Made by a program: the position numbers and the translations under genes. A DNA stretch of 20,304 nt from a virus: the UHGV virus genome UHGV-0219734, one strand, 5' to 3'. Shown piece by piece: positions 1-18,184 of this stretch. Each line of letters begins with the position of its first letter. Within the stretch, counting starts at the first letter, position 1. A model generated the notes under the pieces. The model was not told the DNA's origin and made no database searches. It saw nothing but the letters and a program-made list of their open reading frames with translations.

Positions 1-2817
1 TTGCCATTCGCAGGATTAATCATCGCAATCCTGTCCGCCGCCAGCAGCACCTGACTCTGCATACCGTCAGGGGTATTCTCAATACCGGCACCAATACCCG
101 CGATATAAAGGCGTCCGTCCTGCATCTGCTGCAGCTTCACAGCCCACATGCTGTTCAGGTTATTATTTGTATCAACCTGAACCTTCTGTATCTGCTGAAT
201 TGCCGCACTCTGGTCTTCCAGTTTCTTATTGACGGTCTGCGTGATTTCATTGCTGACATCCGTAATGGACGTCCTGATTTCAGCCAGGTCAGGCGCAAGC
301 TGACCGTTATCAATCTGCGTCCACAGCTCCTGAGCCAGATGGCTTTTCCCTATCTCTCCTTTGAAAAAATCCAGATAGCCGGATGCATCATCACTCGGCT
401 GGCCAACAGCCTCCACAAATGCCGATTTGCCAACGGTGTTCACACTGCGGATGTAAAAATAATAATCATGGCCCGGTTTGATATTGATACTGGCGGCTAT
501 CCAGTACAGCGCCGTGCCAAGATAGCGGGCTGTGGTTTCAACCTGCCTGATATCGGTAATCCGCGTTTCCGAGAACCAGAACTCAAACTGTACCGTCGGA
601 TCATAAACCGCAAGATGCGGCGTGGCAGTTATCTGAAAATAGCCCGGCGTCAGCTCAATCCGCGACGGCGCTGCCGGTGCGGCAATCCGGAACGATACCG
701 ACGCCGGATCGCCCTGCTGCCCCCACGCATTTACTGCCCGGACTGTCAGCCTGTAGTTCCCCAGCGCCAGTTGCCTGAAGCGGTATGTGGTTTCCGTCGT
801 CCTGGCCGTGCTGACCAGCCGCTCACTGCCGTCGTCCGCTGCCACGGTCAGACGGAGCAGGAAGCTCACGCCCTTCACCACCTTCGGCGTGTCCCAGCGC
901 GCCAGCACCTGGTATTCCCCGCTGTCTGCGGTGACTTCGGCGGTCAGGTGCTGCACCGCTGGCGGCGTGACACCATTCACCGTGCCGCTCTGGTCGCCGT
1001 CAAAGTGCGCCCCGTTATCCACGATGGCCTCTTTTTCCGGTACATGCTGCACGGCGGTGATGGCATACGTGCCGTCGTCGTTCTCACGGATACTCACGCA
1101 GCGGAACAGGCGCTGGCGCAGCGTCGGCAGCTTCAGCCCCCACACGCTGTATTCAGCAACACCGTCAGGAACACGGCTCACTTTTACCTTCACGCCGTCG
1201 GTGACGGACTGAACCTCCACGCTGACCGGATTGCCACTTCCGTCAACCAGGCTTATCAGCGTGGTACCGGAGGATGGCAGCGTGATTTCACGGTCGAGCG
1301 TCAGCGTCCGGGTCTGGCTGTTCACCGCCAGCACACGACCACCGGTGCTGATACCGGCATAGTCATCATCACAGATTTCAATAACATCGCCCGGTACATG
1401 GCGAAGCCCTTCTGCGCCGACGCTGAAATCCACGGTCTGCGTTTCCAGCAGTTCTGTTTTAATCAGCCACAGCCCGGCGCGGTGTGCCTGCCCCCGACTG
1501 GTACAGCCAAAGGCATCCATCTTCGTGACGTTACGACCGTAACGGGCAATGGCCTGCGTGTCCTCCACAAGCTCTGTCGCCGTCTCCCAGCCGTTGTCCG
1601 GGTCAATCCAGTTCACCTCAACGGCATTATGGCGGTCCTTCAGGGCGCTGAAGCTGTAGCGGAACGGCGCGCCATCATCCGGCATCACCACATTACTGCG
1701 GTTATAGGTCCACACCTTATCCGACGGTCGGTCCTGCACGAACGTCAGCGTCTGCCCGTTCCATACCGGCATACAGCGCATCGCCGAGCAGAAATCACTG
1801 AGCACATCCCACGCCTTGCGCTGTGTGGTCAGGTACGCATTACAGGTGATGCGCGGCTCCGTGCCGCCAAAGCCGTCCGGCACTGACTGGTCGCAATTCT
1901 GGCCGATGACATACAGCGCCCATTTATCCACATCTGCCGCACCAAGACGTTTCCCCATGCCGTAGCGCGGGTGGGTCAGCATATCCCACAGACACCAGGC
2001 CATGTTGTTGCTGTATGCCGGTTTTAACGTTCCGTCCCAGATACCGCTGTATTGCCGCGTCTGCGGGTTATAATTCGACGGCACCTGCAGAATGCGCCCG
2101 CGAAGATGATAATTACGGCTCACCTGCTGGCTGCCGAACTGCTCCGAATCCACCTGCACGCCGACCAGTGCCGTGTTCGGGTAGCACTGTTTCACATCGA
2201 TGATTTCGGTGTATGACGACCAGAGCGTTTTGTTCTGCAGCTGGTCTGTGGTGCTGTCCGGCGTCATCCTGCGCATCCGGATATTAAACGGGCGCGGCGG
2301 CAGGTTATCCACCACCACCGAGGCCAGATACTGCGAGGTGGTTTTGCCCTTAATGGTGATGTCTTTTTCCGTCACCCAGCCACCGTTACGCTGTATCTGA
2401 ACCAGCAGGCGGACTTCCGACGGATTCCGGTCCCCCTTTGAAGTGGTTTCCACCAGTGCCTGCACACCGAAGGTAAAGCGCAGTCGGTCGATGTTTGCCG
2501 ACGTGATGGTGCGGGTGATCGGCGTGTCATATTTCACTTCCGTACCCAGCACCGTCTCGGAACCGGAGGATTCAAAGCCCTCCGGCGGTGTCTGCTCCTG
2601 CTCACCTGCCCGGAACACCACCGTGACGCCGGAGATATTGGTATTCCCCTCACTGTCCAGCACCGGCGTACTGTTCAGCAGCACGCTTTTTAACCCATCC
2701 ACCGGACCTTCAACCGGCCCTTCGCTGATGGCATCGATCACACTCAGCAACTGCGTGGACTTCAGGTTGTCCTTCGCTTCGCGCGGGGTATGCCCCTTAC
2801 TGCTACCTTTACCCATT
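1..2817 (-). CDS. J: Tail tip / central tail fibre protein J, N-terminal ~939 codons (3' end runs off the window start)
   Basis: Minus-strand ATG at 2815-2817 preceded by GGAG. Translation begins [13 protein letters not shown], and a spot-checked internal stretch (~1800-1890: [40 protein letters not shown]) matches lambda gpJ as I recall it. The ORF track reports no minus-strand ORF below 2883, consistent with one open frame leaving the window. The large plus-strand ORFs here are Arg-rich antisense artefacts. Confidence 0.9.
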
Positions 2818-2828
2818 CCTCACACTCC

Positions 2829-2857
2829 ATAAACAACAAAGCCGCCCAAAAGGCGGC
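2829..2857 (-). terminator. Rho-independent terminator-like hairpin downstream of the lipoprotein moron, immediately 5' of the J ribosome-binding site
   Basis: Plus strand reads aaacaacaaa-gccgcc-caaaa-ggcggc: a 6-bp all-GC stem with 5-nt loop. On the minus-strand transcript the hairpin is followed by a U-rich tract (UUUGUUGUUU). Lies between the lipoprotein stop (2883) and J start (2817). Confidence 0.55.
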
Positions 2858-2882
2858 TCATGAGTTACGGCAGGATTAACTA

Positions 2883-3221
2883 TTATTTACATGCATTAAC
2901 ACTATCAGCAAAAATTTTTGGCGTTAATGCTGGTACGCGTTCATAAAGAGTAAAACTACTGCCATTTCCTGCTTTTTTGATATCAAGCACAACATCATAC
3001 CCACCCATAGCCTGTGGAACTAAAAGGCTTACCCCATTCTCAATAGGAATGGATGTTATAGGTGTTCCATTACCAGCCCATTGTCTGGATATGCAGCCTG
3101 ACAATTCATCAATATTTTTTAATGAATTACCTTCCATTACAGGCTTGCCGGATTTTACGTAATCCAAAGATTTACATCCTGTTAAGGCAATAATCGTGCA
3201 GAATAAAATCGTTTTGTTCAT
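2883..3221 (-). CDS. Moron-encoded small secreted lipoprotein of unknown function (112 aa from ATG; track ORF extends to a TTG at 3233)
   Basis: Translation MNKTILFCTIIALTG|CKSLDYVKSGKPV... has a hydrophobic signal peptide plus lipobox (L-T-G-C), Lys at +2, and two further Cys (SGCISRQ, NACK). AT-rich gene with AT-rich upstream region and terminator hairpin downstream. Sits between I and J, which are adjacent in lambda. No strong Shine-Dalgarno seen, so start is uncertain. Confidence 0.6.
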   Translation of the reverse strand: MNKTILFCTIIALTGCKSLDYVKSGKPVMEGNSLKNIDELSGCISRQWAGNGTPITSIPIENGVSLLVPQAMGGYDVVLDIKKAGNGSSFTLYERVPALTPKIFADSVNACK

Positions 3222-3293
3222 ATAGCTAACCAACAGAATAATTATCAGTGTTCGATATAAATATTAAATCAGTTAGAACATGAGTAAATAATA
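3222..3293 (-). promoter_or_regulatory. AT-rich putative promoter region of the lipoprotein moron
   Basis: About 70 bp of very AT-rich sequence between the I stop and the lipoprotein start, with several -10-like hexamers on the minus strand (e.g. GATAAT, TATTTA). Exact -35/-10 cannot be assigned by eye. Confidence 0.3.
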
Positions 3294-3965
3294 TTACCGC
3301 CCAATTACCACAACCTGACCACCATCCCCTTCATCTGCCGTGCTGATCTCCTGAGATGCCACGCGTGACCCCACGCGCATTTCACCGTACAGAACGGGCA
3401 GAACATTACCCTGGGCAACCATGTTATCCAGTGAAGAGAAATACGTGTTCTGCTTACCGTTATCCGTTGTCTGTGTACGGGGAGTTCTGGCTTTCGGTGC
3501 CAGCATCTGCGCCACACCACCGAGCACCATACTGGCACCGAGAGAAAACAGGATACCGGTCATACCACCGGCCCCAATGGCTGCCCCCCATGCTGCAAGG
3601 GTGGCTCCGGCAGTAAAGAATGATCCGGCAATGGCGGCAGCTCCCAGGACAATCTGGAATACGCCACCTGACTTGGCCCCGGCGACTCTGGGAACAATAT
3701 GAATCACAGCGCCATCAGGCAGAGTCTCATGTAACTGCGCCGTTAATCCGGACGTGCTGACATCCCGTCCGGCAATCCGTACCTGATACCAGCCGTCGCT
3801 CAGTTTCTGACGAAACGCCGGGAGCTGTGTGGCCAGCGCCCGGATAGCTTCAGCCCCCGTTTTCACACGAAGATCGATGCGGCGGCCAAATCGTTGTAAA
3901 TCCCCGTAAAGGCAGATGCGTGCCATGCCCGGTGACGCCAGAGGGAGTGTGTGCGTCGCTGCCAT
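3294..3965 (-). CDS. I: Tail tip assembly protein I
   Basis: 223-aa ORF with ATG at 3963-3965; same length as lambda gpI. Gly/Ala-rich hydrophobic C-terminal half (GAAAIAGSFFTAGATLAAWGAAIGAGGMTGILFSLGASMVLGG). Position between K and J. Overlaps the K 3' end by 103 nt in another frame. Confidence 0.9.
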   Translation of the reverse strand: MAATHTLPLASPGMARICLYGDLQRFGRRIDLRVKTGAEAIRALATQLPAFRQKLSDGWYQVRIAGRDVSTSGLTAQLHETLPDGAVIHIVPRVAGAKSGGVFQIVLGAAAIAGSFFTAGATLAAWGAAIGAGGMTGILFSLGASMVLGGVAQMLAPKARTPRTQTTDNGKQNTYFSSLDNMVAQGNVLPVLYGEMRVGSRVASQEISTADEGDGGQVVVIGR

Positions 3966-4606: not shown

Positions 4607-4611
4607 GGGAT

Positions 4612-5310
4612 TTACTGCGAAAGTTTGTTAATGGAAAGGAAGCCGCCAAAGTTGCCGACGTTATTGCGAAACTTACAGCCACTCAGGCATTTGCTGCATT
4701 TATCCTTCGTGATATCGGACGTCGGCTGGTCATATTCATCCGCGACAGCCGGACCGTTATAACCGCACTCATCACCGCGATAGGTCCAGGTGCAGGTATT
4801 AGCCAGCATGATGCGCCCCGGAAAAACAGCACCATCCGTTTCCGTCGGCGTGGACAGTACAAAGGAGGCACTCACCGCGCTCAGTTCGCTGCACTGCTCG
4901 ATGCGCCAGCGGCTGATCACCTCCTGCTCCGGATCGGCGTCGCTGTTTCCGTTGACGAAGTTCACCGCATCCAGAAAACGGGCATAAACCTTACGCCTGA
5001 CCACCGTTCCGCCGACCAGACTCTGCAGGTCTTCCGCCATCCCGGTGACCATACCGTACAGGTTAGAAACCGTCAGCGTGGGACGCGTACTGGTGCCTTT
5101 GCCATTCAGTTCGAAACCACTCCCCTGAATGGGATACGCCTGATACTGCCGCCCCTGCCAGGTGACCGGCTCACCTTTTTCGTTCTGCTCATTACAGAAA
5201 AAATAACGTTCTCCACCAACCTCTGTCAGATCGATTTCCCAGAGCACCACGCAGGCAGACTGCTCCGCACGGGTGCATTCATTCAGTGTTTCCTGTCGGA
5301 TATTCTGCAT
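4612..5310 (-). CDS. L: Minor tail protein L
   Basis: 232-aa ORF, same length as lambda gpL. Start ATG overlaps the M stop (ATGA). Cys cluster near the C-terminus (CSKCLSGCKF). Gene order M-L-K. Confidence 0.9.
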   Translation of the reverse strand: MQNIRQETLNECTRAEQSACVVLWEIDLTEVGGERYFFCNEQNEKGEPVTWQGRQYQAYPIQGSGFELNGKGTSTRPTLTVSNLYGMVTGMAEDLQSLVGGTVVRRKVYARFLDAVNFVNGNSDADPEQEVISRWRIEQCSELSAVSASFVLSTPTETDGAVFPGRIMLANTCTWTYRGDECGYNGPAVADEYDQPTSDITKDKCSKCLSGCKFRNNVGNFGGFLSINKLSQ

Positions 5311-5639
5311 CAGTTCACCACCTGTTCAAACTCTGCGCTGAACTCAACACGCAACATACTGACCCGCGACGACCATTTTGCGCAGGTCACCTTTATCTGC
5401 CGGTAGCCATAAGGCGGCGTCCACAGAAAGGCCTTCCAGCCCCCGTGCTCAGCCAGAAACGATTCCAGTGCCGTGGCCTCCTCGCGGGGAACAGAAAGCG
5501 TCACGCTGTACGTTTTCAGGTCAGCGTTCAGCCCGGCAGGCGCACGCTGAGAATAGCCATCACCAAAGCGCACCTTTATTACGGAAGGGGCCGAAGCCAC
5601 ATCCATACCGGGTTTCACTTTCCAGCGGAAGGTTTTCAT
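5310..5639 (-). CDS. M: Minor tail protein M
   Basis: 109-aa ORF (MKTFRWKVKPGMDVAS...EFSAEFEQVVN), matching lambda gpM length and, by recollection, nearly all of its sequence. ATG overlaps the H stop (ATGA). Confidence 0.92.
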   Translation of the reverse strand: MKTFRWKVKPGMDVASAPSVIKVRFGDGYSQRAPAGLNADLKTYSVTLSVPREEATALESFLAEHGGWKAFLWTPPYGYRQIKVTCAKWSSRVSMLRVEFSAEFEQVVN

Positions 5640-8600
5640 CGTCCACCTCCGGAGAACAGACCACCATCACGGGACTGCTGTTGCATAAAGTCCGCTGCTG
5701 CTTTTTTCCCGAGGTCATAAACCACCTTCAGGGCAGCCGGACCTATCTGCCCGTTCGTGCCATCGTTATTGATCTCGATGTTGTACTGCGGGGCAAACAT
5801 CGCCATACCTGAACCACCAATATCCGCCACAACCCCCAGCTTACCGTCAGCACCACGACGCAGAGGCAGAATGGCTTCAGGCCCAGCTTCCCCCATCACA
5901 CCTGCACCTTTTGCAAAAGCAAAAAACGTCGGACGGTTAACCACCGTGCCACTGTAGCGACTCAAATCAGCAGACTGATAAACACCACCATCAGCATTGG
6001 GCGTCACACTGGCAGTTGCTGCACTCCCCCAGCCAAACGCCGAACCAATCCCCTTAACTGCCTGCATCATGGACATCTGGGCCATGATTTTTGCCAGATC
6101 AGAAAGGAGCGAGGCGGTAAAAGATTTGAAGTTCAGTTTTCCGGTAGTACAGAACGTTGCCAGTGCATTACCTGCACTGTTAAATGCCGCTGTAAGCATC
6201 TGCTCAGCAGTGCCTGCCGCATTATCCGCATCTGCCGTGAAATTCTGAAACGCCCGCATAGCACCGTTTTTCCAGTTACCCTGAGCAATTTCAAGCTGTT
6301 GCCAGTAACGGCGATTCTCATTCAGTTGTCGGTTCAGGCTCTCCGTCAGCGCCTGCTCGGCCTTTCTGTAGTCATCCGTGTTATATGTCCCTTTCTGCTC
6401 ACTATCCCGCCTCAACTGCTCCAGCTGTTGCTGGTATTTCTGGCGAAGACTCAGTTGTACCTGATATCGCTGCCGCTGCTGATCACCCATACCCACCGTG
6501 GCGATATCCAGGTCATGTTGCTGGCGCTGAGCGCGCTCTTCTTCAGCCAGTTGACTGGTCAGCTGAATTGTTTTTTTCTTCAGATCGTTGAGTGCCGTCT
6601 GTTTCTGAAGCTCCTGCTGTTTTACATCCAGCAGCGTCAGTGCCTGAATCAGTTCATCTTTACGGGCCAGCAAACTCTTTTCATCTGCCGTCAGTTTTTT
6701 CCCGTCCAGATCGCTGATGCGCTGCTGCAGAGCCAGAAGCTGTTTATGCGCTTCTGTCATCCTGTCAGTGGCAATGCCTGCTGACTGTCTTGCAGCAGCA
6801 ATCTGCCCTTCCACCTGTGCCTGTTGCTGACTGTACTGCAGCAATAACCGGGTGGCCTCATCATTACGGGTTTCGCGTGTTTTTTTCTTACCGGATGCCA
6901 GGGCTTTCTCGTAACGTTCATTTTCACGTTGTATCGCCGCATCCCTGACAGCCTGATCGGCGTACTGCATGGCATTAATACGCGCAATTTCACGCTGATG
7001 CCGTGCTGCTTCCGTTTCATTCATCCGGTTCAGTGCAGCATTTTCAGCATTACGGCGTTTCTGTTGCTCCTGATAATTCCGCTCTGCCTGCTCTTTTGCA
7101 TCCTGCAAATCCTTCTGGCGTTTTTTCTCCTGAAGATCGTTAAGACGCTGCTGATCGTATTCAACCTGAGAAGATGATGCCGTCCAGGGGAGTCTTTTCG
7201 CCCGCGACACTTTCTCCTGTAAAGCGGCAATCTGTTCATCCAGCGAGTCTTCACGACCAATATTCATGGCCGCATCCCAGAACTGCTTCCACCAGTCAGA
7301 CAAAGTTTGCAGCGTGCTACCCAGCGCATTGAGGTTATTATCAATATCCGCAGTACGACGATCGGTTTCCTCTGCCAGTGCAGACATGGCTATCCGTGCA
7401 GCATCACTGGACCGCCCCTGCTCCCCAAGGACGCGTATCTGCTCAAGCTGAGTGGCAGTAAGAAAATGCAGCTCATTGTCCAGAGCCTTCGCGGCATTTA
7501 CAGGATCATCCTTCAGCCGCTTAAACTGACTTATGGTATCGCTGACCGACTGGCCAACCGATCGCTCCATCTGTGCGGCAGCTCTCGCCACCATACCGAT
7601 ATCGTTTCCACGAAATGCACCACTCCCCACCACCTGAGCCAGCGCACCGGCTGCAGCATGTTGCGTGATACCATTCCCGGAAATAGCACGACTGAGCGTC
7701 CACAGTTGCCCGGCAGTGACTCCGGCATAATGCCCCGTCAGCGACAACTGGCGGTTAAATTCTTCCCCCTCCTTCTGACCGTCATACCAGGCTTTACCCA
7801 GACCATAGACGGCCGCGGCAATACCGCCAATAACCCCGCCCAGCATCATGCCTTTCGGTGACATCAGTGTGTCTATCCATCCGGCACGGTTAGCCAGCGT
7901 TATCCCGGATCCCCTCAGCGCACCTAAATTGCCGCGGGCCAGTTCACCTATCAGAACGCCTATCTCCTGGCGGGCCGCTGCACTTTTCAGACCCAACGAA
8001 TGCGTGGCTTTTCCTGCCTGCTCCATTTTGCGGATATACACTTCTGCAGCACTGCTTACCCCCAGTTGGGCAGCCTTAGCACGAAGCAACTCAGAAGAAG
8101 AAAGATTCTGGCGGGTTGCCTGCTCTTTAAGCTGACGGATAAACGCCACTTTCTGTCGGGTAGACTCTTCCTCAGCCTGTGTAAGAACACGGGTTTTCGC
8201 AGTAACCTCAGAAATCAGCGCCAGATAATCCTGCTGACCAATCCCGCCACTGTTTCTGGCCTGTCGGATCTGCTGCTGAATACGCTGTAATTCCTGCAGC
8301 CCCGCACTGGCCTGGTTCACACTGTCAATCTGACGATAAAACGCAGCAGCCGCTTTATCCTGAGCCTCCGCCAGAGCCATGGCCTGCGCCTGTTCCTCGC
8401 GCATTTTCTGGCTCAGCGCCTCCATGCGCTGGCGGGTTTTCTCCACCTCGCGGGCCATGCGTTCATGAGCCTGTGCGTTCTTCTCCACCGTCTGCGCATG
8501 GACGGATGCGGCTGTTGCAGCCGAAGAAGCCGCCTGCGTTGTCTGCCGGGCGGCCTGAGTCTGACGCTCCATAAAACGCTGCATACGGGCAGAAGACCGT

Positions 8601-8710: not shown

Positions 8711-9011
8711 AACGCACACCTCCGGAAATACCTTCCCCAAGATGCATCAGTTCTTCGTCCGTTCGCTCCGGTATCCCGTTCTCTTCCGGTAAAAGGCTGA
8801 AATCAGCCACCGCAGCATCACTGCTGCCGGACACCATTCTCACGATCAATGCCTTCAGCGAGGCAAACTGCGCATCCATCCACACATCACTGAAGCTCTG
8901 CATCCGGAAATAATCGCCCCACTCACCAAGCTCAGTGGCCGACATTTCCGACAGCATCCGCCGCCAGTCTGCCCGCCGGAACTCCCGGGCAAGCCGCATG
9001 ACAAACTGCAT
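8682..9011 (-). CDS. T: T-frame segment of tail assembly chaperone, expected to be expressed as a G-T fusion by -1 frameshift
   Basis: ORF in the -1 frame relative to G, open from just upstream of the G stop. Translation ...LAREFRRADWRRMLSEMSATELGEW...GGVRYGPD resembles lambda gpT. Position between G and H. Confidence 0.8.
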   Translation of the reverse strand: MQFVMRLAREFRRADWRRMLSEMSATELGEWGDYFRMQSFSDVWMDAQFASLKALIVRMVSGSSDAAVADFSLLPEENGIPERTDEELMHLGEGISGGVRYGPDSQPGH

Positions 9012-9019
9012 TTCCCGCG

Positions 9020-9466: not shown

Positions 9467-10210
9467 TTAACCTGCGGCGCTGACAGCCACCGTAGCCACT
9501 GCCACAAAATCGCCGTCAGAAGTCATGCCCACAATGCTGACACTGCCCTGCTTCACGCCTTTCACCGTGGCCACAAGCCCGTTCAGGGTCACCGTGGCAG
9601 TCTGTGGATCTGTCGAATGCACACTGATCGCTTTGTCACTGGCTCCGTCAGGTTTTACTGTAAAGGTCAGCGTGGTGGTTGCTCCCACTTTTACACTGGC
9701 AGATGCCGGTGCCACCGTCAGCCCGGTAACGCCCACAGTTTCAGTGCCTTCCTCTGCCAGATACGGACGCCCCACACCGCTGATTTTCACTGTGCGGGTC
9801 ATCACGTCTTTTGAGGCAATGGTTTTACCCAGTGAGCTCAGCCAGCCACGGAAAACATCAACAGTGCCGTTGGGATATTTGATACGAAACGCGCAGACTT
9901 CACCGGAGTCGAACAACTGAACCAGTTTTTTCTGCCCGCTGTCACCCGGACGCCAGGCCAGCGTCGCCGAAGTATCACCGACTGATTTCTGCCCCTGGGT
10001 TGTCGTTTTCCAGTCTGCATCTTCATCATCGAGATAAGTGTCATCTTCTGCATCAGCGGTCATTTCGCCAGGTTGCAGATCCTTCACCATCGCAAGACGC
10101 AGCCAGTCAGTGTCCGACAAAGGGTTCGCAAATGCGTCGCCGTTGCCGGTATACATCCAGAACGTCGTTCCCGCACCTTTCGTTTTTGCCAGTGGATTTG
10201 GTGTGGTCAT
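9467..10210 (-). CDS. V: Major tail protein V with C-terminal Ig-like (Big_2-type) domain
   Basis: ATG at 10208-10210 preceded by AAGGAGGT. Translation MTTPNPLAKTKGAGTTFWMYTG...YLDDEDADW...FPNGTVDVFRGW resembles lambda gpV. C-terminal ~90 aa is Thr/Val/Ser-rich beta-type sequence typical of the gpV Ig-like domain. The track's upstream extension (10285) overlaps U and is rejected. Confidence 0.9.
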   Translation of the reverse strand: MTTPNPLAKTKGAGTTFWMYTGNGDAFANPLSDTDWLRLAMVKDLQPGEMTADAEDDTYLDDEDADWKTTTQGQKSVGDTSATLAWRPGDSGQKKLVQLFDSGEVCAFRIKYPNGTVDVFRGWLSSLGKTIASKDVMTRTVKISGVGRPYLAEEGTETVGVTGLTVAPASASVKVGATTTLTFTVKPDGASDKAISVHSTDPQTATVTLNGLVATVKGVKQGSVSIVGMTSDGDFVAVATVAVSAAG

Positions 10211-10220: not shown

Positions 10221-10634
10221 TTAATTCGTGTACGTGATCTGGTACGTGATTTCCGCCATCGCCCAGGTGGCCATCTCATTATCACGTTGATAGTTAAAAC
10301 CGAGTGGGTTCAGGGTGTCGATGAGTCCGGAAAGTGCCGGTACATCATTCAGGGCCGGGAAAATGGTGCTCTCCATCCACATATCCAGCTCTGAATCCGG
10401 TGCCTGTGCCCGGATGAAGACGGCAATATGCAGAACAGCCTGCCAGTCATCTTCATCCGTCATTTTTCCGGTGTACTGAGCATCACTCAGCCACACCGCC
10501 ACGGCAGGCAGTTCCTGCGCATCAATAAATGCCGGAAGCCCGTCAAAAAACGTGGCGCTGTCTCCACACTGTTCCCGAAGGCGTGCCAGTACGACCTGGC
10601 GGATTTGTGTATGTCGGTTCATCGGGTCAGCCAT
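10221..10634 (-). CDS. U: Tail terminator protein U
   Basis: 137-aa ORF. Motifs ...GDSATFFDGLPAFIDAQELPAVAVWLSDAQYTG...PDSELDMWMEST...ITYQITY resemble lambda gpU (131 aa) as recalled. Position between Z-like and V. Confidence 0.9.
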   Translation of the reverse strand: MADPMNRHTQIRQVVLARLREQCGDSATFFDGLPAFIDAQELPAVAVWLSDAQYTGKMTDEDDWQAVLHIAVFIRAQAPDSELDMWMESTIFPALNDVPALSGLIDTLNPLGFNYQRDNEMATWAMAEITYQITYTN

Positions 10635-11209
10635 AACCTCAGTTGTTGTTTCAGTGCATACCCCAGCTGTTTCGGCATTTCCGCAGCAATGATGCGGTCG
10701 CGGGCATCTTCAAATGCCTGTGTCAGCGGTCCGGACAGCGGGATTTTCACTACCTCCACAGGAAGACGATTTTTTCTTGGCCTGCCCTGATGGTCATGCC
10801 CTGTTGCAAAACGCGCTTCAGGAAGACGCCTCAGAACATGCCAGCGGCCATTCGCCAGTTGCTGAACAAATGCCCCCCGGAAAAAGTATTTTCCCACTCT
10901 CAGTCCTTCACCAGCACGCCGCCGTGTTGTGTTCAGTTTGATGGCGGGCAGATTGCCCCGGTTAACGCGGATCCTGGCCGTCATTTTTCCTGACGGACTA
11001 GCTTTAAACACCCGGACACGCTGACGTACCAGTTTCAGGGGGATCCCTTTCACCTGGTTATCTCCCGCAACGGTATTCCCGGCAACCTGCCGGGTGGCAA
11101 CCGAGACCGCTTTCTGTGCCACACGGTTTATCGCCCATGCGCTGGCCTGTGGCACCATACGGGTATCAAGGCTGTTCAGATTGCGGATGGCATTCTCAAG
11201 CCCCTTCAT
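10619..11209 (-). CDS. Z: Tail completion protein, gpZ-like
   Basis: 196-aa basic ORF, ATG preceded by AGAGGTG, sitting between FII-like and U exactly where lambda Z (192 aa) lies. Assignment is mostly by synteny and size; sequence identity not verified. Confidence 0.7.
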   Translation of the reverse strand: MKGLENAIRNLNSLDTRMVPQASAWAINRVAQKAVSVATRQVAGNTVAGDNQVKGIPLKLVRQRVRVFKASPSGKMTARIRVNRGNLPAIKLNTTRRRAGEGLRVGKYFFRGAFVQQLANGRWHVLRRLPEARFATGHDHQGRPRKNRLPVEVVKIPLSGPLTQAFEDARDRIIAAEMPKQLGYALKQQLRLWLTR

Positions 11210-11220: not shown

Positions 11221-11496
11221 TTACTCAATAAAGATCATTGGCTTACCGTTAAAGCGTTCATGCCGTGTGACCGTCCATTGTTGTCCGTCATAAACAACGC
11301 GATCCCCGCGCCGTGGGCGGTATCCCGAAGAAAACACCACCAGAGAGACCGCAGGTCCGGACAGAGCATTCAGCTCTACCAGTGTTTCTCCCGGGATCAC
11401 AGTCATATCGACATCATTAATCGAGGCTGTCTTTCCCATCTTTCTGACCGTGATCGCATCCATACGCGCTGCCAGCCGGGAAAAGGGATCAGACAT
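11221..11496 (-). CDS. Head-tail joining / head completion protein, gpFII-like
   Basis: 91-aa ORF between the head genes and Z. C-terminal RRGDRVVYDGQQWTV resembles lambda gpFII RRGDTLTIGEENFWV as recalled. Shorter than lambda FII (117 aa). Confidence 0.65.
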   Translation of the reverse strand: MSDPFSRLAARMDAITVRKMGKTASINDVDMTVIPGETLVELNALSGPAVSLVVFSSGYRPRRGDRVVYDGQQWTVTRHERFNGKPMIFIE

Positions 11497-11812
11497 TGAG
11501 TTTTACCGGCACTTCTTCTGCACTGGTTCCGGCATCTGCCCAGACAACCCCGACCAGCGGATCAGAGCCGCTGTTAGTCAGCTGAACTTTTCCGGACTTC
11601 AGATAAACCTTCTTACCCGTTTTCATATCATCCGTTTTCAGCTTAGGCAGCATAAACACACCTTCGGTCATGCCGTCGCCTGTTTCACCCTGTGGAATAT
11701 CGGTCAGCGCCACCGCAAAAACATCACCCACCTGCACCAGATCTCCGCTGCTGATGGCTGCACTGGCAACAATCGCCACCGTTTTTCCTTCTTCTACAAA
11801 ATTCTTTGCCAT
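11489..11812 (-). CDS. DUF2190-family small protein immediately after the capsid gene (putative head decoration/cement protein)
   Basis: 107 aa from ATG 11810-11812 (GGAG about 9 nt upstream). Pattern MAKNFVEEGKTV...SSGDLVQVGDVFAVALTDIPQGETG...EGVFMLPK...GKKVYL...LVGVV matches the DUF2190 signature as I recall it. The track's upstream extension (TTG 11857) runs through hairpins and is rejected. Confidence 0.6.
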   Translation of the reverse strand: MAKNFVEEGKTVAIVASAAISSGDLVQVGDVFAVALTDIPQGETGDGMTEGVFMLPKLKTDDMKTGKKVYLKSGKVQLTNSGSDPLVGVVWADAGTSAEEVPVKLNV

Positions 11813-11898: not shown

Positions 11899-13857
11899 TT
11901 ACGCCGTACATTTCACCAGACCGCGGTGATCAACTGGCGCGACACCGGCGTCAATACGCACTTTCGTTGTCACGCCATCCACACTGAAGCCCTCCATCTG
12001 ATCAACATATGGCGTATCCACACCGTTGAGATAAGCCACTTCAATCGTATCGGAGCCTTTTGACGCAGCCAGGTAGAAGGTGGTCTGGCTGTTATCATCA
12101 AGACGAGGCTCTGCAATAACGGTCGCAAAATCTTTCACCGGGTTAATAATACCGGCGTTAATGTCAGCCCCCTTGACACTTGAGGAGCGAATGACCTGGT
12201 TAGCAACAGACTCCATCGCCGTCGGTACCAGTACGAACGCAGGACGAATATTCAGATGACGCTCCCCCTCTTTCTGAACACGCATCAACTGGCGGGCTTT
12301 ATCCAGCGATGCCACGTCCATTGCAGCGCTCTCCAGTACGTTTGCATGTTTCGCTTTATCGAACAGACTTACATTATCTGTGGAGATTTTCGGGTTAGAC
12401 GTCAGAATGGCATAAACCAGATCGGCAATAGTGGATTTCGCCGCACGGCCCAGCTTCATCGGGACATCGGTCAGCATATTCAGATCATCATTGATAATGG
12501 CCTGACGGGTGATACTGAACAGCTCGCCATAGGTCGCCAGTGCAATAGTGGCCTGTTTATCTCCGGTGGTGACGTATTTATATTCCGCCCCTTCACGCAC
12601 CTGGCGCAGAGCACTGAAGCCCCCCATACCCACACGATGGGCAATTTTAAAATCAGACAACTGACCTTTCCGCGTCCACTGTTCGTAAGTTTCAGGAGCA
12701 TCTTCCCAGCCCTGCAGAATGGCTTTGTTCGCAACATCCAACAAAATATTACCGAAGTCAGACGTACTGTGTGTGAACGCCGCACCAACCATCTGCATCG
12801 GATTATAACCGGAAACCCCAATACCCCGTTCAGTCAGTGACATACGGGCATATTCACGCAGGGTCATCCCGTTGTAGACATTATCACGTTCGGTTTTTTC
12901 AAATCCGGCACGCGCCATCAGCGCCTGGCGGATCCCGTCCCCCACAAAATTACCGTTACCGGCATAAATATGAGCCGGGGTATTTTTATTGGATGGCGTG
13001 GACTCGCGCCCCATCTCGTTCAACAGCTTTTCGCGGGCCTGCTCCAGCGAACATTCAGGATCGGCAAGACACTGAGCCTGCAGCGTCTGATAACGCCCGC
13101 CAAACATGGCAAACAGATCATTAATACCGTTTACACGCGCTTTTTGCTCTGCCAGTACCTGCGCACGGATACTGTTTTCATCCACCACGGGTGCTGCTGC
13201 CTGCACTGGCGTCCGGGAGGCTTCAGGTTCATTATCCTGTACGCGTGGAGCACTGTTGCGTGGCGGAGTAATCATGTTTCGAATGGATTCCGGCATCTTT
13301 TTAAATTCCTCTGTACGTTTTGACTGAATACATGCCATTGCCTTAACGGCTGGCGTTACCTGATCAGCAAATCCATGTGCCAGACATTCGGCACCGGACA
13401 TCCAGGTCTCATCCGCCAGCATGGCAGCAATTTCATCGGTGGTTTTCCCGGTTTTCTGTGCATAAGCGGGTAACAGAACCGCCTCAACTTTATCGAGCAG
13501 GTCGGCATAGGTGCGCATGTCCTCCGCATCACCGCCCGTAAAGCCAAATGGTTTATGAATCATCATGAAGGTGTTTTCCGGCATAATGACCGGGTTTCCC
13601 ACCATCGCAATGACCGACGCCATTGACGCCGCCACACCGTCGACATAAACGGTAATGGACGCACCATGTGTTTTCAGTGCATTAAAAATGGCGATGCCTT
13701 CAAAGACATCGCCACCCGGTGAATTGATATGGAGATTAATGTGGGTGATATCGCCCAGTGCACTCAGATCACTGATAAACTGCTTCGCTGTAACACCCCA
13801 GAAACCAATCTCGTCATAAATATAAATATCCGCGTCACTCTGGTGACCAGCCTGCAT
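11899..13857 (-). CDS. Prohead protease (ClpP-like, S14) / scaffold-like linker / major capsid protein fused in one ORF, ~652 aa
   Basis: From ATG 13855-13857 the N-terminal ~200 aa carry ClpP-like motifs (DIYIYDEIG, SPGGDVFEG, GVAASMASVI with Ser, MIHKP with His). A Pro/Gln/Glu-rich linker follows, then ~320 aa of capsid-like sequence ending ...VDGVTTKVRIDAGVAPVDHRGLVKCTA. One uninterrupted frame. The track's 87-aa N-terminal extension overlaps the portal 3' end, is Arg-rich, and is rejected. Confidence 0.8.
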   Translation of the reverse strand: MQAGHQSDADIYIYDEIGFWGVTAKQFISDLSALGDITHINLHINSPGGDVFEGIAIFNALKTHGASITVYVDGVAASMASVIAMVGNPVIMPENTFMMIHKPFGFTGGDAEDMRTYADLLDKVEAVLLPAYAQKTGKTTDEIAAMLADETWMSGAECLAHGFADQVTPAVKAMACIQSKRTEEFKKMPESIRNMITPPRNSAPRVQDNEPEASRTPVQAAAPVVDENSIRAQVLAEQKARVNGINDLFAMFGGRYQTLQAQCLADPECSLEQAREKLLNEMGRESTPSNKNTPAHIYAGNGNFVGDGIRQALMARAGFEKTERDNVYNGMTLREYARMSLTERGIGVSGYNPMQMVGAAFTHSTSDFGNILLDVANKAILQGWEDAPETYEQWTRKGQLSDFKIAHRVGMGGFSALRQVREGAEYKYVTTGDKQATIALATYGELFSITRQAIINDDLNMLTDVPMKLGRAAKSTIADLVYAILTSNPKISTDNVSLFDKAKHANVLESAAMDVASLDKARQLMRVQKEGERHLNIRPAFVLVPTAMESVANQVIRSSSVKGADINAGIINPVKDFATVIAEPRLDDNSQTTFYLAASKGSDTIEVAYLNGVDTPYVDQMEGFSVDGVTTKVRIDAGVAPVDHRGLVKCTA

Positions 13858-13870
13858 CCTGAACCAGGAA

Positions 13871-15379
13871 TTATTCTTCGGACTGGTCGTCGGTGTGCTG
13901 CGGCTCCTGTCGTTTCGTTGCGGCACTGCTGCCTCCTTTATCACTGGCCGGATCGGTATCAAATACCAGATCCAGCTTGCGGTTTTCATCAATTTCGGCC
14001 TTGCGCCGACGTTTGACATCATCCGGATTACGACCACCTGCACGTACCCAGTCTGATTCTGTCGCCGCTCCACCACGAATCTGAATTTTCCAGGCCTCAG
14101 CCTCCTTAACAGGGTCAATCCACGGCATCACCGGTCCGGAATACACCGCGGTATACAGTGAAGAACGGTCAAGATCGCGGGGTAGCCTGATAACACCGGA
14201 TGCCACAGCCTGTTTCAGCCAGGCACGATACATCGGGCGGGTGACGGCACCAATAAACCAGTCCTGCAGGATCAGGTAGCCATCAGTAGACTCAACCAGT
14301 TCCTGACGCTGGGCGCTGTAAGTGCCGTTATAGTTGCGTGCTGTACTGGAAAAACTCAGACGACTGCCCGCCGCCACGGCACGCAACTGACCATTACGAA
14401 AAGTTTCAAGGTTAGGATTGGGGCGATCCGACTTCACCATTCCGATTTCTTCGCCGGGTTTCAGATCGTCGTAAATAATGCCTGGCTGAATGGTAAGCTC
14501 GCGTTCATTCTCCTTGCAGCCATTACCATCCGGTTCATAGCTCTGTCCGTCGCCTTTCCGGATGTACATCCCCAGAGCAGCGGCGATCCTTGCTGCAGTC
14601 AGCTCAGAATCTTCATACTCTTTCAGGGCACTGAGGCGGATCAGTACACCGGACAATAAAGACGTCCCGCGCATCTGGTGCAGACGGCGAACAAATTTAA
14701 GATGCAGCATTCGCTCTGCATCCACTTCTTTGGTTTCCATCTGCCGTCCGGATACAGGACGGCTTTTATACACCAGATATTTTTCGGGACGCCCCCAGTC
14801 ATCAACAAACACGCCCTGATTCAGCCTGTTGCTCTCATCACTGGTCATGGGAATAAAGTCCGGCTCGAGCGCCTCCAGCCAGAAATGAACACCGGCAGAA
14901 GGCGTCAGGCTGTTTATGCGCCCGGAAACCATCTGGGCAAACACCTCACCATCGCGCAGCCAGGTACGCAGCATCAGACGTTCCAGCATCGGGCGGGTAA
15001 ACTGCCCGGTGACTTCCGGACTGACAGACCATTCACTCCATCGGGTGCGTATCTCCGCTGCCAGGTCACGGGCAATGGCCCCATTGCGTAATACCGGATG
15101 TGGCTCGACAATAATCCCGTTTTTCCCCACCACCCGTTCTTCCAGCTTGTCAAATACACCAATAACCAGATCGTGGTTGTTATCAAGGTAACGGGCCTGC
15201 TCACGTAACGACACGGCCCCGTACTGGCTTAACTGGTCGGCAGTTCGGTTTTCCCGCCGGGCTTTGTGTGTCCGCGTCGTTTTTACGGCCTCATAAGCCT
15301 GGATCACCGCACGGGAACGCAGCCTTGCCGCTTTCCATCCTGGTGAAAAAACGCCAATCACATCATCAAGAATAGCCAT
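13871..15379 (-). CDS. Portal protein (lambda gpB family)
   Basis: 502 aa from ATG 15377-15379 (MAILDDVIGVFSPGWK...); this ATG overlaps the gpW stop (ATGA). Size and position match lambda-family portals. The track start (GTG 15451) would overlap W and is rejected. Confidence 0.85.
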   Translation of the reverse strand: MAILDDVIGVFSPGWKAARLRSRAVIQAYEAVKTTRTHKARRENRTADQLSQYGAVSLREQARYLDNNHDLVIGVFDKLEERVVGKNGIIVEPHPVLRNGAIARDLAAEIRTRWSEWSVSPEVTGQFTRPMLERLMLRTWLRDGEVFAQMVSGRINSLTPSAGVHFWLEALEPDFIPMTSDESNRLNQGVFVDDWGRPEKYLVYKSRPVSGRQMETKEVDAERMLHLKFVRRLHQMRGTSLLSGVLIRLSALKEYEDSELTAARIAAALGMYIRKGDGQSYEPDGNGCKENERELTIQPGIIYDDLKPGEEIGMVKSDRPNPNLETFRNGQLRAVAAGSRLSFSSTARNYNGTYSAQRQELVESTDGYLILQDWFIGAVTRPMYRAWLKQAVASGVIRLPRDLDRSSLYTAVYSGPVMPWIDPVKEAEAWKIQIRGGAATESDWVRAGGRNPDDVKRRRKAEIDENRKLDLVFDTDPASDKGGSSAATKRQEPQHTDDQSEE

Positions 15380-15597
15380 CAGAACCTCGCCAGCCGGTAC
15401 CCGGGATGCCCCCGTCGTCGTGTAATCAGAGCCGCAAGGCGGCGCTCCCACTCCTGCCGTCCCTGCCGGATCTCAGATAAGTTTTCCATGGTCATCTGCT
15501 GACCATTAAAGGTGACGGATTTTCCGTCCAGCACCGCCATTTCAGCTTCCGTATAACGCTGAATCATGGCTTCGATATCATTCTGGTTCATAACCAT
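15379..15597 (-). CDS. W: Head-tail joining protein gpW-like
   Basis: About 70-aa ORF between terminase large subunit and portal. C-terminus ...ITRRRGHPGYRLARF resembles lambda gpW ...QRRRGPAGFYV as recalled. An alternative start at the third codon (ATG 15589-15591) overlaps the terminase stop (ATGA). Confidence 0.7.
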   Translation of the reverse strand: MVMNQNDIEAMIQRYTEAEMAVLDGKSVTFNGQQMTMENLSEIRQGRQEWERRLAALITRRRGHPGYRLARF

Positions 15598-17690
15598 CCT
15601 CCGGAAGTCAGCCAGGGGTTAACATCGTCAGTTACTGTTTTCTTCCGTTTTTGTTTTTTAACAGGCGTGGATACCGGTTCCGGTGAGGGTGACGGTTCGG
15701 TACTGTCCGGGACACACTCCAGCCAGGTTTCCCGGCTCGCCCACTCCGGTGTATCCGGCCAGCGGATCTTTTCGTATCCATGCAGAATGACCAGAGCCTC
15801 GGCATACACCATCAGGTCAAAAGCTTCGTTGGCACCGCGACCCGGCTTACTCCATTTCCCGTCACTGCTCCGCTCTTCATACGTCAGTTCGTCGTAAAAC
15901 CAGCTCCCCAGCCAGTCAGGGAAATGCACATAGCCGGGACCTGGAGAGTCACGCCATAACGCGTTATTCACCCGGTCTTTCAGGGCATCCGTCTGAAGAA
16001 GCCAGAGCGGCACATCACCTGCGGCCTGCGCCCGTCGGCCCGTTCGTCCGGTGTTATCAGGGAATGTACGGGTGATCAGTTTTGCGCGCCGGATGCTGTC
16101 GCCCTTAAACAGGTAAATACGTTTACCAAGGCCATCACGACGGCAACGACGCCAGAATTTATAGGCATTATCAGTGACCCCGTCTTCACCGCCGGAGTCC
16201 ACCGCCATTGCCATCAGTCGCATTTGTTGAGAAGGATCGGAGGCCAGCGGCCAGCTTTTATGAAAAACATCCGTCAGCAGGACATCCCAGTCTTCCGGAT
16301 AGCTGGCCGGATCAATTCGCTGGCTCTCCCCGTCGCTGTCACCGCGCAATGACTGCGTGATGTTGTAACGATCAATAATCCAGCGTTCGCCACGGCTGCC
16401 ATAGCCCGTTACCTGAACCACAAAACGGCGATGACGTCCCGCCTGCACATCCACTGTCGCCACAAGGAAATTAACGCCATCCGGCACACTGCGGGAAGGA
16501 ACTGGCTCTGCCCGCTGCTCAAGCAGTTCACTTTTTCGTTGCTCCATGCTGGCACGGGGAAGATAAGGTAATCCCCAGTCGGTATTGATAACCGTCTTGA
16601 GTGTTTCTTCACTTCCGGTTGTCTCGTATTCCTGTTCTGCAGTAAGCAGTTTGTAAACGAGTTGCGAGAGTGTCTGGTAAGCAGCTGCCGGACCCTCCAT
16701 CCAGAATGACGCAATACGTGAGCGTCGGGGATCACCATAACGACTGCCATCCGCATTGATGGATTCACCATCCCGCAACCAGACCCCACGTCCGTTCAGC
16801 TCACGTTTTTGTTCAGGCATAATCCGTCCTGAACAGGAAGGACACTGAATATAAGCCGCCTCACTTGCCAGCACGGGATCGGCAATATCACGGAAACCAG
16901 CAACCACATCGCCGCAGGGCTGAAAATACTCACCACAGTGTGGACAGGGCCAGTACCAGCGACGGCGATCACCACGGTTATAGAGCGACAGTATCCCCGT
17001 GGTTGGTGGAGCCTCATGCGGTGAAGTCCGTCGCCATTTCACATCCTTCACATCCCTGCCGGGGGAACTCTCCACCAGCGTCATACCACTGGACATAAAT
17101 GTGGTGGTACGTTTTGAGGCAAGAGAGAAAGCATCCCCCTCGCCATCAATATCTTCCGGAAAACGGTCATAATCCGTCAGCGCGACGCATTTATAATCTG
17201 ATGAGGACATGATATTGACTGACGGCCAGCCGATTTTCAGGTAGTTACCAGCAAGGAATGTTCTGTCATAAACGTTGTTGTCATTTTTGTTCGGACTCAG
17301 GCGACTGACCACTTCCGGGCTGACGCGAAACGTTCTGGCGAGTCGTTTTTTGGAGTGTTCGCGGGCTTTTTCCTCCGTCATCTGAATGATCAGCATATCA
17401 GCAGGATCGCAAATCACGTTGTAAATCACCCAGCCGTCAATCAGGCCGATAGTCTTGCCGGTTCGTGCCGGGCCAACAAATATCACTGCGTCGTATTCAC
17501 GCGAGGCCAGGCAGTTCATCGGCTCAATAACATACGGTGCCACCAGCGGATCCCACGGGACTGAGTTCCCTGCCCCCATGGGCACCCGCATATACTGAGC
17601 AACGGCATCAGCAACCCGCATTCGCCTCGGTGCGCGAAGGATATAACCTGAATCGGTTCGTGCTGCCTTTGCGGTTTCCTGATTCAGCAT
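15588..17690 (-). CDS. Terminase large subunit (GpA family)
   Basis: 700 aa. Walker A-like GPARTGKT; Cys/His cluster WYWPCPHCGEYFQ paralleling lambda gpA ACPHCGEEQY as recalled. ATG overlaps the small-subunit stop (TAATG). Confidence 0.9.
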   Translation of the reverse strand: MLNQETAKAARTDSGYILRAPRRMRVADAVAQYMRVPMGAGNSVPWDPLVAPYVIEPMNCLASREYDAVIFVGPARTGKTIGLIDGWVIYNVICDPADMLIIQMTEEKAREHSKKRLARTFRVSPEVVSRLSPNKNDNNVYDRTFLAGNYLKIGWPSVNIMSSSDYKCVALTDYDRFPEDIDGEGDAFSLASKRTTTFMSSGMTLVESSPGRDVKDVKWRRTSPHEAPPTTGILSLYNRGDRRRWYWPCPHCGEYFQPCGDVVAGFRDIADPVLASEAAYIQCPSCSGRIMPEQKRELNGRGVWLRDGESINADGSRYGDPRRSRIASFWMEGPAAAYQTLSQLVYKLLTAEQEYETTGSEETLKTVINTDWGLPYLPRASMEQRKSELLEQRAEPVPSRSVPDGVNFLVATVDVQAGRHRRFVVQVTGYGSRGERWIIDRYNITQSLRGDSDGESQRIDPASYPEDWDVLLTDVFHKSWPLASDPSQQMRLMAMAVDSGGEDGVTDNAYKFWRRCRRDGLGKRIYLFKGDSIRRAKLITRTFPDNTGRTGRRAQAAGDVPLWLLQTDALKDRVNNALWRDSPGPGYVHFPDWLGSWFYDELTYEERSSDGKWSKPGRGANEAFDLMVYAEALVILHGYEKIRWPDTPEWASRETWLECVPDSTEPSPSPEPVSTPVKKQKRKKTVTDDVNPWLTSGGWL

Positions 17691-18184
17691 TACTCCTCCT
17701 GCTGTAATTCCTCCTCATCATCCGCACCTGCTTCGGTCACCCGCAGGGCTATCTGATCGCGCAGATCATCAATAATGGACTGAACACGGCTCACAGCGGC
17801 AGGCTGCAGACCGCAGTCACGTTCCAGAATATCCGGTAATGTCTCCAGCACCTGCACGACCGCTTTTGCCCAGATGGCAAACTCCCGTCTGACATCACTG
17901 GCCGGAATGAGTTGCGCCGTTTCCTGTTCGAACTTAAGACGCTCACGTTCAGACTGATACCAGGCTTTGCGCTCATGCGCGTCCATTTCGCCTTCTGCAA
18001 CCGGCGGTGGTAATGCCAGAAATGCCGACACAATATCAACCACCCGATAAAGCTTGAGGTTGCTTTCATGCCCCCCTGCAACGGGTAGATTTTGCAGCCT
18101 TGCCGCAGCAGTCTGGCGATGTACACCTGACAGTGCCGCCAGTTGACTGATATTCAGCGTCAGATTTTTTAACTCTCGATCCAT
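17690..18184 (-). CDS. Terminase small subunit (Nu1-like DNA-packaging protein)
   Basis: 164 aa. N-terminal helix-turn-helix-like segment LNISQLAALSGVHRQTAAARL, acidic C-terminus (DDEEELQQEE). Immediately upstream of and overlapping the large terminase; first gene downstream of the cos site. Confidence 0.75.
   Translation of the reverse strand: MDRELKNLTLNISQLAALSGVHRQTAAARLQNLPVAGGHESNLKLYRVVDIVSAFLALPPPVAEGEMDAHERKAWYQSERERLKFEQETAQLIPASDVRREFAIWAKAVVQVLETLPDILERDCGLQPAAVSRVQSIIDDLRDQIALRVTEAGADDEEELQQEE

Follow-up and report, generated by a model that had tools for sequence, protein, structure and literature searches.

How the genes for one virus particle come to be drawn from different sources is the question raised by UHGV virus genome UHGV-0219734, a stretch of 20,304 nucleotides that we analysed in full and call the window. 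A first-pass annotation made from its letters alone had read the window as a mosaic, in which lambda-identical tail tip genes were joined to a head module of another lineage, with recombination joints around the tail genes H and M and at the head–tail boundary. We found that the window very probably represents the late operon, encoding the virion, of an ordinary lambdoid prophage that belongs with mEp460, cdtI and phi458 in one group. The recombination joint around H and M is real, and maps to 5660/5658, within the last eight codons of H.

A lambda-like tail tip joined at the end of the tape measure gene

All recognisable long open reading frames (ORFs) of the window lie on the minus strand. 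They follow the collinear lambdoid order terS–terL–adaptor–portal–protease/scaffold/capsid–decoration–connector–Z–U–V–G–T–H–M–L–K–I–J, as judged from the ORF map and from Pfam, PHROG and PGAP assignments. In a blastn comparison with lambda (NC_001416, positions 1–24000), the window did not diverge uniformly but fell into three tiers of identity, with break-points at 5774, 3298/2847 and 320. DNA identity was 94.5% over 5774–3298 (lambda 12965–15440) and 95.7% over 2847–320 (lambda 15474–18002). It was about 65% for the U–V DNA (10675–9750), and the head region gave no nucleotide match. The near-identity to lambda that had been proposed for M, L, K, I and the N terminus of J was borne out, at 93–99% in protein: M is 92.7% identical to its lambda counterpart, K 97.5%, I 99.1% (two differences) and J 97% over residues 1–830. 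All five genes of the lambda tip complex thus have highly identical orthologues here, in lambda order and with lambda overlaps, and L keeps all four cysteines (C173, C182, C205 and C212) that coordinate the Fe–S cluster of gpL (PMC10721106).

The step in identity extends to synonymous positions. At four-fold degenerate sites in conserved codons, the window agreed with lambda at 91% of sites in M, 90% in L, 85% in K, 87% in I and 92% in J, compared with 31–56% in Z, U, V, G and H and 27–29% in TerL and portal. Because the synonymous-site step mirrors the protein step, conservation alone is excluded, and the ancestor that this tip had in common with the lambda tip must be much younger than that of the remaining genes. 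The tip probably shares a recent gene pool with the lambda tip.

To locate the switch we used a 200-bp identity profile against seven references. From terS to about 5700 the window was 98–100% identical to the phages mEp460 and PhiR55_1 (in most bins of 18200–5700). In M, identity was 61–69% to these two phages and 88–94% to lambda. The profile recovered through L; K was 93–99% identical to lambda, mEp460 and PhiR55_1 alike, and the middle of I was again closer to lambda (96–98%) than to mEp460 and PhiR55_1 (58–81%). A three-way alignment of window, lambda and mEp460 over 5998–3298 contained 485 informative sites. Between 5998 and 5660, 135 of them sided with mEp460 and 2 with lambda; between 5658 and 5044, 165 sided with lambda and 12 with mEp460. 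The main breakpoint reached a maximum chi-square of 287; among 10,000 permutations the largest value was 29.5. At the level of single bases, mEp460-type sequence gives way to lambda-type sequence between 5660 and 5658, eight codons short of the H stop and inside an RDGG-coding stretch, CGTGATGGTGG, that is identical in all three phages. The last seven residues of H read LFSGGGR in the window and lambda, and RLSGAYR in mEp460 and Gifsy-2.

DNA similarity to lambda begins 138 bp earlier, at 5774, because the C-terminal codons of H are conserved. This segment is equivalent to residues 808–853 or so of lambda gpH, a range that takes in the coiled coil 818–842; its amino acid identity is 78% to lambda, 89% to mEp460 and 68% to Gifsy-2. 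In an alignment of seven phages and a prophage of E. coli APEC O1, it was kept across lambda, the APEC O1 prophage, VT1-Sakai, mEp460, Gifsy-2 and the window, and the remainder of H was only 24–29% identical between the lambda and Gifsy-2 types. In the lambda virion the coiled coil lies in the lumen of the tip, on a tripod formed by gpI residues 135–223 (PMC10721106; PMC11101478), so the conserved H tail is the portion of the tape measure that forms, in structural terms, part of the tip. Homology for crossovers is provided by this tail as well.

The same boundary recurs in other genomes. Some E. coli prophages matched a junction probe (5450–5850) only from 5671 on, and others only up to 5655; with matches starting or ending within 5655–5671, the H–M boundary has been used repeatedly. 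The probe was found end to end in vB_EcoS-813R6 (ON470618, 99.8%) and 500465-3 (CP025902, 98.5%), both of which are partial records, and in phi458 (97.0%). Given one precisely mapped crossover and the few E. coli prophages that break within 5655–5671, we raise as a tentative and rather doubtful idea that some 48 C-terminal codons of H, chiefly the RDGG stretch, may be a recurrent ‘linker’ for exchange of whole tips, the interface of tape measure and tip being promiscuous rather than co-adapted. The coiled coil of the window H is of the mEp460/Gifsy-2 type, with 14 of 25 residues as in lambda 818–842, and it is paired with a lambda-type gpI, a combination that phi458 has as well. Because the coiled coil is of one type and gpI (compared over 3294–3700) of the other, these partners were not co-inherited. 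The pairing is presumably viable in phi458, which has been deposited as a phage together with the name of its propagation host, E. coli MC1061.

The lambda-like block is a patchwork that ends within J

The lambda-like block runs from the H–M joint into J, as had been proposed, but it is not one piece: set against mEp460 and PhiR55_1, the nearest relatives, only 5658–5044 (M and the 5' part of L) and 3817–3324 (the I-specific part) are specifically lambda-type. L is lambda-specific over roughly its first 270 nt and otherwise common to lambda and mEp460, with the segment boundary at 5044/5029. Across 5029–3837 the informative sites were divided between lambda (20) and mEp460 (35), and across 3817–3324 they were again overwhelmingly lambda-like (110 versus 6). 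This last patch starts just past the K stop (3863) and ends at the I stop. Recursive single-breakpoint chi-square analysis did not split the lambda-like block further, and a two-breakpoint scan was required; it gave a chi-square of 119 for the inner block, and the largest value among 300 permutations was 34. The proteins show the same alternation, as M is 55% identical to its counterparts in mEp460 and PhiR55_1, K is 98% identical to that of mEp460 and I is 78% identical to that of mEp460. The block is itself composite, made up of separate M and I cassettes, a shared L–K segment and J up to its second Ig domain.

J runs off the window, so its full length was taken from an identical prophage (L003 31489–34968). 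The part within the window carries the Pfam domains FNIII-A_GpJ, Phage-tail_3, Ig_J, Ig_J_second and Phage_Tail_Tip. Over residues 1 to about 815, J was 96–100% identical to its counterparts in lambda, mEp460, PhiR55_1 and Kati. In a per-50-residue profile, identity to lambda fell from 90–100% to 28–60% beyond residue 800, and identity to PhiR55_1 and Kati held at 96–100%. Residues 815–950 were 24–60% identical to lambda and mEp460 and 96–100% identical to PhiR55_1 and Kati; residues 951–1000 were conserved in all of the phages compared. The final segment, 1001–1159, was 34–54% identical to lambda and 96–100% identical to PhiR55_1, the only phage that matched it. J as a whole is a three-part mosaic, and its residues 815–950 are of the type found in PhiR55_1, Kati and VT1-Sakai. 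The switch of lineage occurs at about codons 815–832 (window 320–374, at about 372), and the nucleotide match to lambda ends at 320. It coincides with the end of Ig_J_second (716–818), and this is the boundary that has been described for gpJ between its hub and FNIII part and its distal fibre (PMC11101478). The earlier view of J as lambda-like therefore holds for residues 1 to about 815 and fails beyond them, where residues 831–938 are only 47% identical to lambda; the joint near 815 had been missed. J does not have the lambda-type receptor-binding end that recognises LamB. Because its C terminus is non-lambda, the receptor is unlikely to be predictable from lambda, and for the same reason a lambda-like tip of this kind is no guide to host range, a point for caution.

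A lipoprotein gene inserted between I and J

Within the most lambda-like block, between I and J and immediately past the I stop, lies the ‘moron’ that the first-pass annotation had placed in that block. The insert has a GC content of 35.3%, compared with 53.9% for the window, and encodes a protein of 112 amino acids that has two conserved cysteines and a lipoprotein signal, MNKTILFCTIIALTGC. It has no counterpart at the I–J spacer of lambda, mEp460, PhiR55_1, Kati or phi458, and the flanks align base for base. It is thus a moron in the sense of Juhala and Hendrix, as it stands between genes that are adjacent in relatives and deviates in base composition. The terminator-like hairpin that follows the insert is the resident one of the I–J spacer, being homologous to one at lambda 15461–15490 and to one in mEp460. 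A consensus scan of the coding strand revealed no sigma-70-like promoter for the insert.

The protein had no match in Pfam or PADLOC, and PHROG 914, the family in which it was placed, has no assigned function. Fifteen homologues were found among 5.8 billion proteins, all of them enterobacterial where a source was named. The insert DNA gave no match among GenBank phages in a sensitive blastn search and was present in 337 of 5,426 E. coli genomes, adjoining gene I in all of the matches listed; it was found behind both Gifsy-2-type and lambda-type heads. A Cor-like exclusion protein was considered and dropped, as similarity to N15 Cor was not significant (E = 0.81). An AlphaFold model of the protein (pLDDT 83) had as its best Foldseek match in the PDB the Francisella lipoprotein Flpp3 (6pny; E = 6.6e-3, TM score about 0.5), too weak a match to assign a function by fold. 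From its position and signal peptide, our guess would be an envelope protein expressed in the lysogen.

Head and tail shaft appear to be one Gifsy-2-type unit

The head had been assigned to a lineage distinct from lambda. This proved right for the protease–capsid fusion, the DUF2190 protein and the FII-like protein, none of which had a match in the lambda protein comparison, and needs qualifying for the portal, which is a distant member of a lambda family. TerL (24% identical to lambda A and 100% to mEp460) and portal (20–23% to lambda B) belong to the same Pfam families as lambda A and B and are their distant relatives. TerS (99% to mEp460, 46% to Gifsy-2) had no match among lambda proteins and no similarity to Nu1, and the adaptor had no BLAST match to lambda W. 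The DUF2190 decoration protein is unrelated in sequence to lambda D.

The fusion ORF, of 675–739 amino acids, combines CLP_protease (residues 95–255) and Phage_capsid_4 (residues 441–736) in Pfam searches. It is named ‘ClpP-like prohead protease/major capsid protein fusion’ by PGAP and has ClpP matches in the PDB. It is of the ‘tripartite’ type of Gifsy-2, for which a fused protease–capsid gene is attributed to Effantin et al. 2010 as cited in PMC12315714. The FII-like protein (orf91) matched PDB 2pp6, a Gifsy-2 prophage protein, at E = 3.6e-19; its match to Phage_attach, the lambda FII family, was weak and below the cutoff (E = 0.0023). This protein carries the names ‘DNA breaking-rejoining protein’ (PGAP) and ‘ATP-binding sugar transporter from pro-phage’ (Pfam, PDB 2pp6), and both look like misnomers for a head–tail joining protein. 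The head is thus of Gifsy-2 type, with protease, scaffold and capsid in one gene accompanied by DUF1441, DUF2190 and 2pp6-like connector proteins.

The shaft genes were correctly described as lambda-family but diverged: V, U, G, T and H, together with Z, are 26–55% identical to lambda in protein (V 55%, G 33%, T 38% and H 26%). The reading frame of T is –1 with respect to that of G, and the two overlap where G ends. At the 3' end of G (9020–9035), where a putative programmed –1 frameshift linking the two genes would be expected, the heptamer is GGAAAAG, compared with GGGAAAG in lambda. H is 94% identical to mEp460 and 60–62% to Gifsy-2, and its body is of the mEp460/Gifsy-2 type. A segment of about 400 bp inside H, 5905–6304, is 65–76% identical to mEp460 and PhiR55_1 and 99% identical to phi458, and is a further small mosaic segment.

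Relative to Gifsy-2, head and shaft have diverged to a similar degree: the capsid fusion is 69% identical, TerL 66%, portal 63%, V 68%, G 58% (56–58% across comparisons), T 51% and H 62%. This similar divergence of the head and of V–G–T–H indicates that head and shaft form a long-linked Gifsy-2-type unit. A recombination joint at the head–tail boundary, which the first-pass annotation had also proposed, was not detectable in this element. An 851-bp probe covering DUF2190, orf91 and the 5' part of Z was unbroken in 1,809 of the 1,860 E. coli genomes with any match. Where similarity does break in most E. coli prophages of this head type, it does so at about 10934 (query position 717), inside Z and not at the boundary between head and tail genes. 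Z thus exists as two alleles with an internal boundary near 10934. The 3' part of Z (10904–10705) is 68.5% identical to mEp460 and 100% identical to PhiR55_1.

An exchange between head and tail is implied only at greater depth. VT1-Sakai has the head type of the window (TerL 70%, portal 78%) with a lambda-like shaft, whose V and H are 79% and 53% identical to lambda and 57% and 27% identical to the window. In N15 the head is lambda-type (87–88%), but the tip is only 31–38% identical to that of lambda. The Z and U proteins encoded in the window are no closer to any one of lambda, N15, Gifsy-2 and VT1-Sakai than to the others. The head–tail joint would then be an old event common to the whole phage group.

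Origin of the mosaic

The identity profiles, the breakpoints and their distribution among genomes are direct observations. To account for them, we infer that lambda-like phages or prophages residing in the same cell had pieces joined by homologous recombination at short conserved stretches situated on functional boundaries. One crossover would have occurred in the RDGG-coding motif (5660/5658), another about 270 nt into L (5044/5029) and a third just past the K stop codon (3837/3817). The 450-bp AT-rich lipoprotein gene would have been inserted into the I–J spacer, and J would have been exchanged at the end of its second Ig/FNIII domain, near residue 815, giving a distal fibre of the PhiR55_1/Kati type. 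The prophage would presumably be able to form virions.

It could instead be argued that no recombination took place, and that the whole module descended together with that of lambda under purifying selection that was stronger on the tip. The tip proteins do assemble into an intricate complex (PMC10721106), and in several phage pairs the tip genes are better kept than the shaft genes. This explanation is very improbable, and is refuted by the four-fold degenerate sites (85–92% in the tip versus 27–56% elsewhere). The edges of the lambda-like block are, moreover, sharp to within a few bases; N15 is 87–88% lambda-like in the head and 31–38% in the tip; the Gifsy-2 tip is only 58–76% identical to that of lambda; and mEp460 shares L–K at 93–97% and M at only 55%. 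Still more improbable is that laboratory lambda DNA contaminated or chimerised the source assembly, although lambda often serves as a sequencing control and often turns up as a contaminant. Identity to lambda is 94–96%, not about 100%, the lambda-like block has an insert that lambda lacks, and the full 20.3-kb sequence occurs at 100% in two independent complete genomes, with its joints in hundreds of genomes and in isolated phages. Divergence of 4–6% together with occurrence in independent genomes excludes such contamination.

A third account, which we regard as quite possible, accepts recombination and differs in its course: a lambda-type tip, from the end of H to residue 815 of J, would have entered a Gifsy-2-type backbone once, and mEp460 and PhiR55_1 would be later derivatives in which M and I were replaced. 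The window and phi458 are lambda-like without interruption over 5658–320, mEp460 M has the look of a foreign allele (only 55–61% identical to those of lambda, VT1-Sakai and Gifsy-2), and the APEC O1 prophage illustrates that I can be swapped alone in a lambda-type context. Against a single transfer, L–K (5029–3837) is slightly nearer to mEp460 (35:20 sites), and patchwise exchange fits at least as well; the panel is one without an outgroup to polarise events. Patchwise exchange, the reading we prefer, meets several objections of its own. Transfer direction and the number of events are not readable from pairwise profiles, and it is equally compatible with the data that the replacement of M and I took place in the mEp460 lineage. 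Lambda itself was not the donor, because the tip block has diverged from it by 4–6%; the source was an unsampled relative, or a common pool for both. A strict rule that interacting parts travel together would not predict the pairing of H and gpI found here, and the inducibility of the prophage is only presumed.

The element and other features of the window

Prophages matching all 20,304 bp of the window at 100% were found in two complete E. coli genomes, TUM13754 and GU2018_CL13, and at least 80% of the window was found at one place in 1,751 of 5,426 complete E. coli genomes. The TUM13754 element is a full lambdoid prophage. Its integrase gene adjoins host dusA in the PGAP annotation of the identical prophage, which suggests integration at or near dusA; this neighbourhood (L003 38766–40989, outside the window) also contains a DinI-like gene. 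The best-matching GenBank phages, PhiR55_1, PhiR47_1, vB_EcoS-569R4, phi458, mEp460, Ayreon and cdtI, were 95–98% identical over 80–93% of the window. Across terS–H, DNA identity was at least 95% to mEp460, PhiR55_1, phi458 and cdtI, the level by which we delimited the group.

Coordinates are collected in Table 1. A transfer RNA scan and an Rfam search at gathering thresholds found no tRNA genes or Rfam families in the window. Matches to lambda cos, GGGCGGCGACCT, with up to three mismatches were no more frequent than chance and none lay in the expected spacer, and cos was not located. The 5' end of terS and the spacer upstream of it (17905–18304) are 76–83% identical to PhiR55_1 and 98–99.5% identical to mEp460, and represent another local swap, at the cos/terS end.

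Table 1. Features of the window, in the order in which the minus strand is read
Feature	Position	Strand	Basis or remark
Lysis genes	20304–18336	minus	
Small terminase, DUF1441 type	17690–18184	minus	Pfam DUF1441, E = 2.7e-41; PHROG 141
Large terminase	15588–17690	minus	Pfam GpA_ATPase and GpA_nuclease
Head–tail adaptor, analogous to lambda W	15379–15591	minus	PHROG 118, E = 1.4e-37
Portal	13871–15379	minus	Pfam Phage_portal_2, E = 1.4e-81
ClpP-like prohead protease, scaffold segment and major capsid, one gene	11899–13926	minus	
Decoration/cement protein, DUF2190 / Phage_cement_2	11489–11812	minus	PF09956, E = 1.4e-20; PHROG 122
FII-like head-closure / head–tail joining protein (orf91)	11221–11496	minus	PF13856 ‘Gifsy-2’ family, E = 6.6e-17
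Tail completion protein Z	10619–11209	minus	Pfam Minor_tail_Z; 41% to lambda
Tail terminator U	10221–10622	minus	Pfam Phage_tail_U, E = 7e-61; 53% to lambda
Major tail tube V, C-terminal Ig-like domain	9467–10210	minus	Pfam Phage_TTP_12 and Big_2
Tail assembly chaperones G (9020–9406) and T (8682–9011)	8682–9406	minus	Pfam Phage_TAC_2, Phage_tail_T
Tape measure H, 1024 aa	5636–8710	minus	Pfam TMP_2, TMP_4, Tape_meas_lam_C
Conserved H C terminus, about 46–48 codons	5636–5774	minus	lambda blastn match starts at 5774 = lambda 12965
Crossover interval	5658–5672	minus	within RDGG-coding CGTGATGGTGG, identical in window, lambda and mEp460
Tail tip M, lambda-type allele	5310–5639	minus	Pfam Phage_min_tail
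Tail tip L	4612–5310	minus	Pfam Phage_tail_L; 97.4% to lambda
Tail tip assembly K, JAB/MPN and NlpC/P60	3863–4606	minus	Pfam Prok-JAB and NLPC_P60
Tail tip I, lambda-type allele	3294–3965	minus	Pfam Lambda_tail_I
AT-rich insert (‘moron’)	2848–3297	minus	replaces 33 bp of lambda I–J spacer
Lipoprotein coding sequence, 112 aa	2883–3221	minus	lipobox LTGC
Terminator-like hairpin, I–J spacer	2839–2859	minus	9 pairs, then T-run
J, tip / central fibre, residues 1–938 of 1159	1–2816	minus	runs off window

Comparison with known systems

This arrangement is already known, being annotated in RefSeq genomes and present in GenBank phages such as phi458 and mEp460. It was on the observation of mosaic late operons that the modular theory of lambdoid phage evolution was founded. 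As a discovery the window therefore carries little weight, and its modest value is that of a clean worked example. In it, the position of a crossover is fixed to within a few bases and coincides with a conserved motif in the tape measure gene, M and I act as independently swappable cassettes, the switch in J is located at a domain boundary, and one tip block with a cargo gene sits behind two unrelated head types. Lambdoid head and tail genes have been described as separate co-transferred modules (PMC9836094), and the phages LLS and mEp213 as combining Gifsy-2-like fused protease–coat heads with lambda-like tails (PMC12315714).

Among the relatives, phi458 (OP434518) shares the head, shaft and H of the window, at 97.5% DNA identity over 18403–3298, and has the same lambda-type M and I and N-terminal part of J. 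It differs in having no 450-bp lipoprotein insert between I and J, and in its lysis and cos-proximal region. cdtI (NC_009514) is 95.4% identical in DNA over 81% of the window. mEp460 (NC_019716) and PhiR55_1 (PV340571) have the Gifsy-2-type head and shaft and the gene order of the window, with L, K and residues 1–815 of J about 95% identical; they differ in M and I, at the protein identities given above (for I, 78%), and have no moron. In addition, mEp460 has its own 3' end of Z, the 400-bp patch in H (75%) and lambda-like residues 815–950 in J, and PhiR55_1 has another terS/cos-proximal patch.

The Salmonella prophage Gifsy-2 (NC_010393) matches the virion module architecture of the window throughout, including the fused protease–scaffold–capsid gene, DUF2190, the FII-like protein (PDB 2pp6 family) and the long tape measure. 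DNA identity is 65–75%, fairly uniform over head, shaft, H, tip and J, with local gaps (Z and parts of H). Its tip genes are of their own type, 61–74% identical to those of the window, and its cargo is different, with a lom homologue and sodC between M and L. Lambda differs from the window in its head, which has the S49 protease C/Nu3, D, E and FI in place of the fused ClpP–capsid gene and DUF2190, and in H, which at 853 residues is 171 shorter. The prophage of APEC O1 (NC_008563, 1.348–1.372 Mb) carries the tip block of the window (5774–1; 93.4% DNA identity), in which the lipoprotein insert of the I–J spacer is 98% identical, with an I allele that is not lambda-type (67–75% DNA identity). 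By contrast with the window, it has this tip behind a lambda-type shaft and a lambda-type head with an S49 peptidase, D-like decoration protein, E-like capsid, FI and FII.

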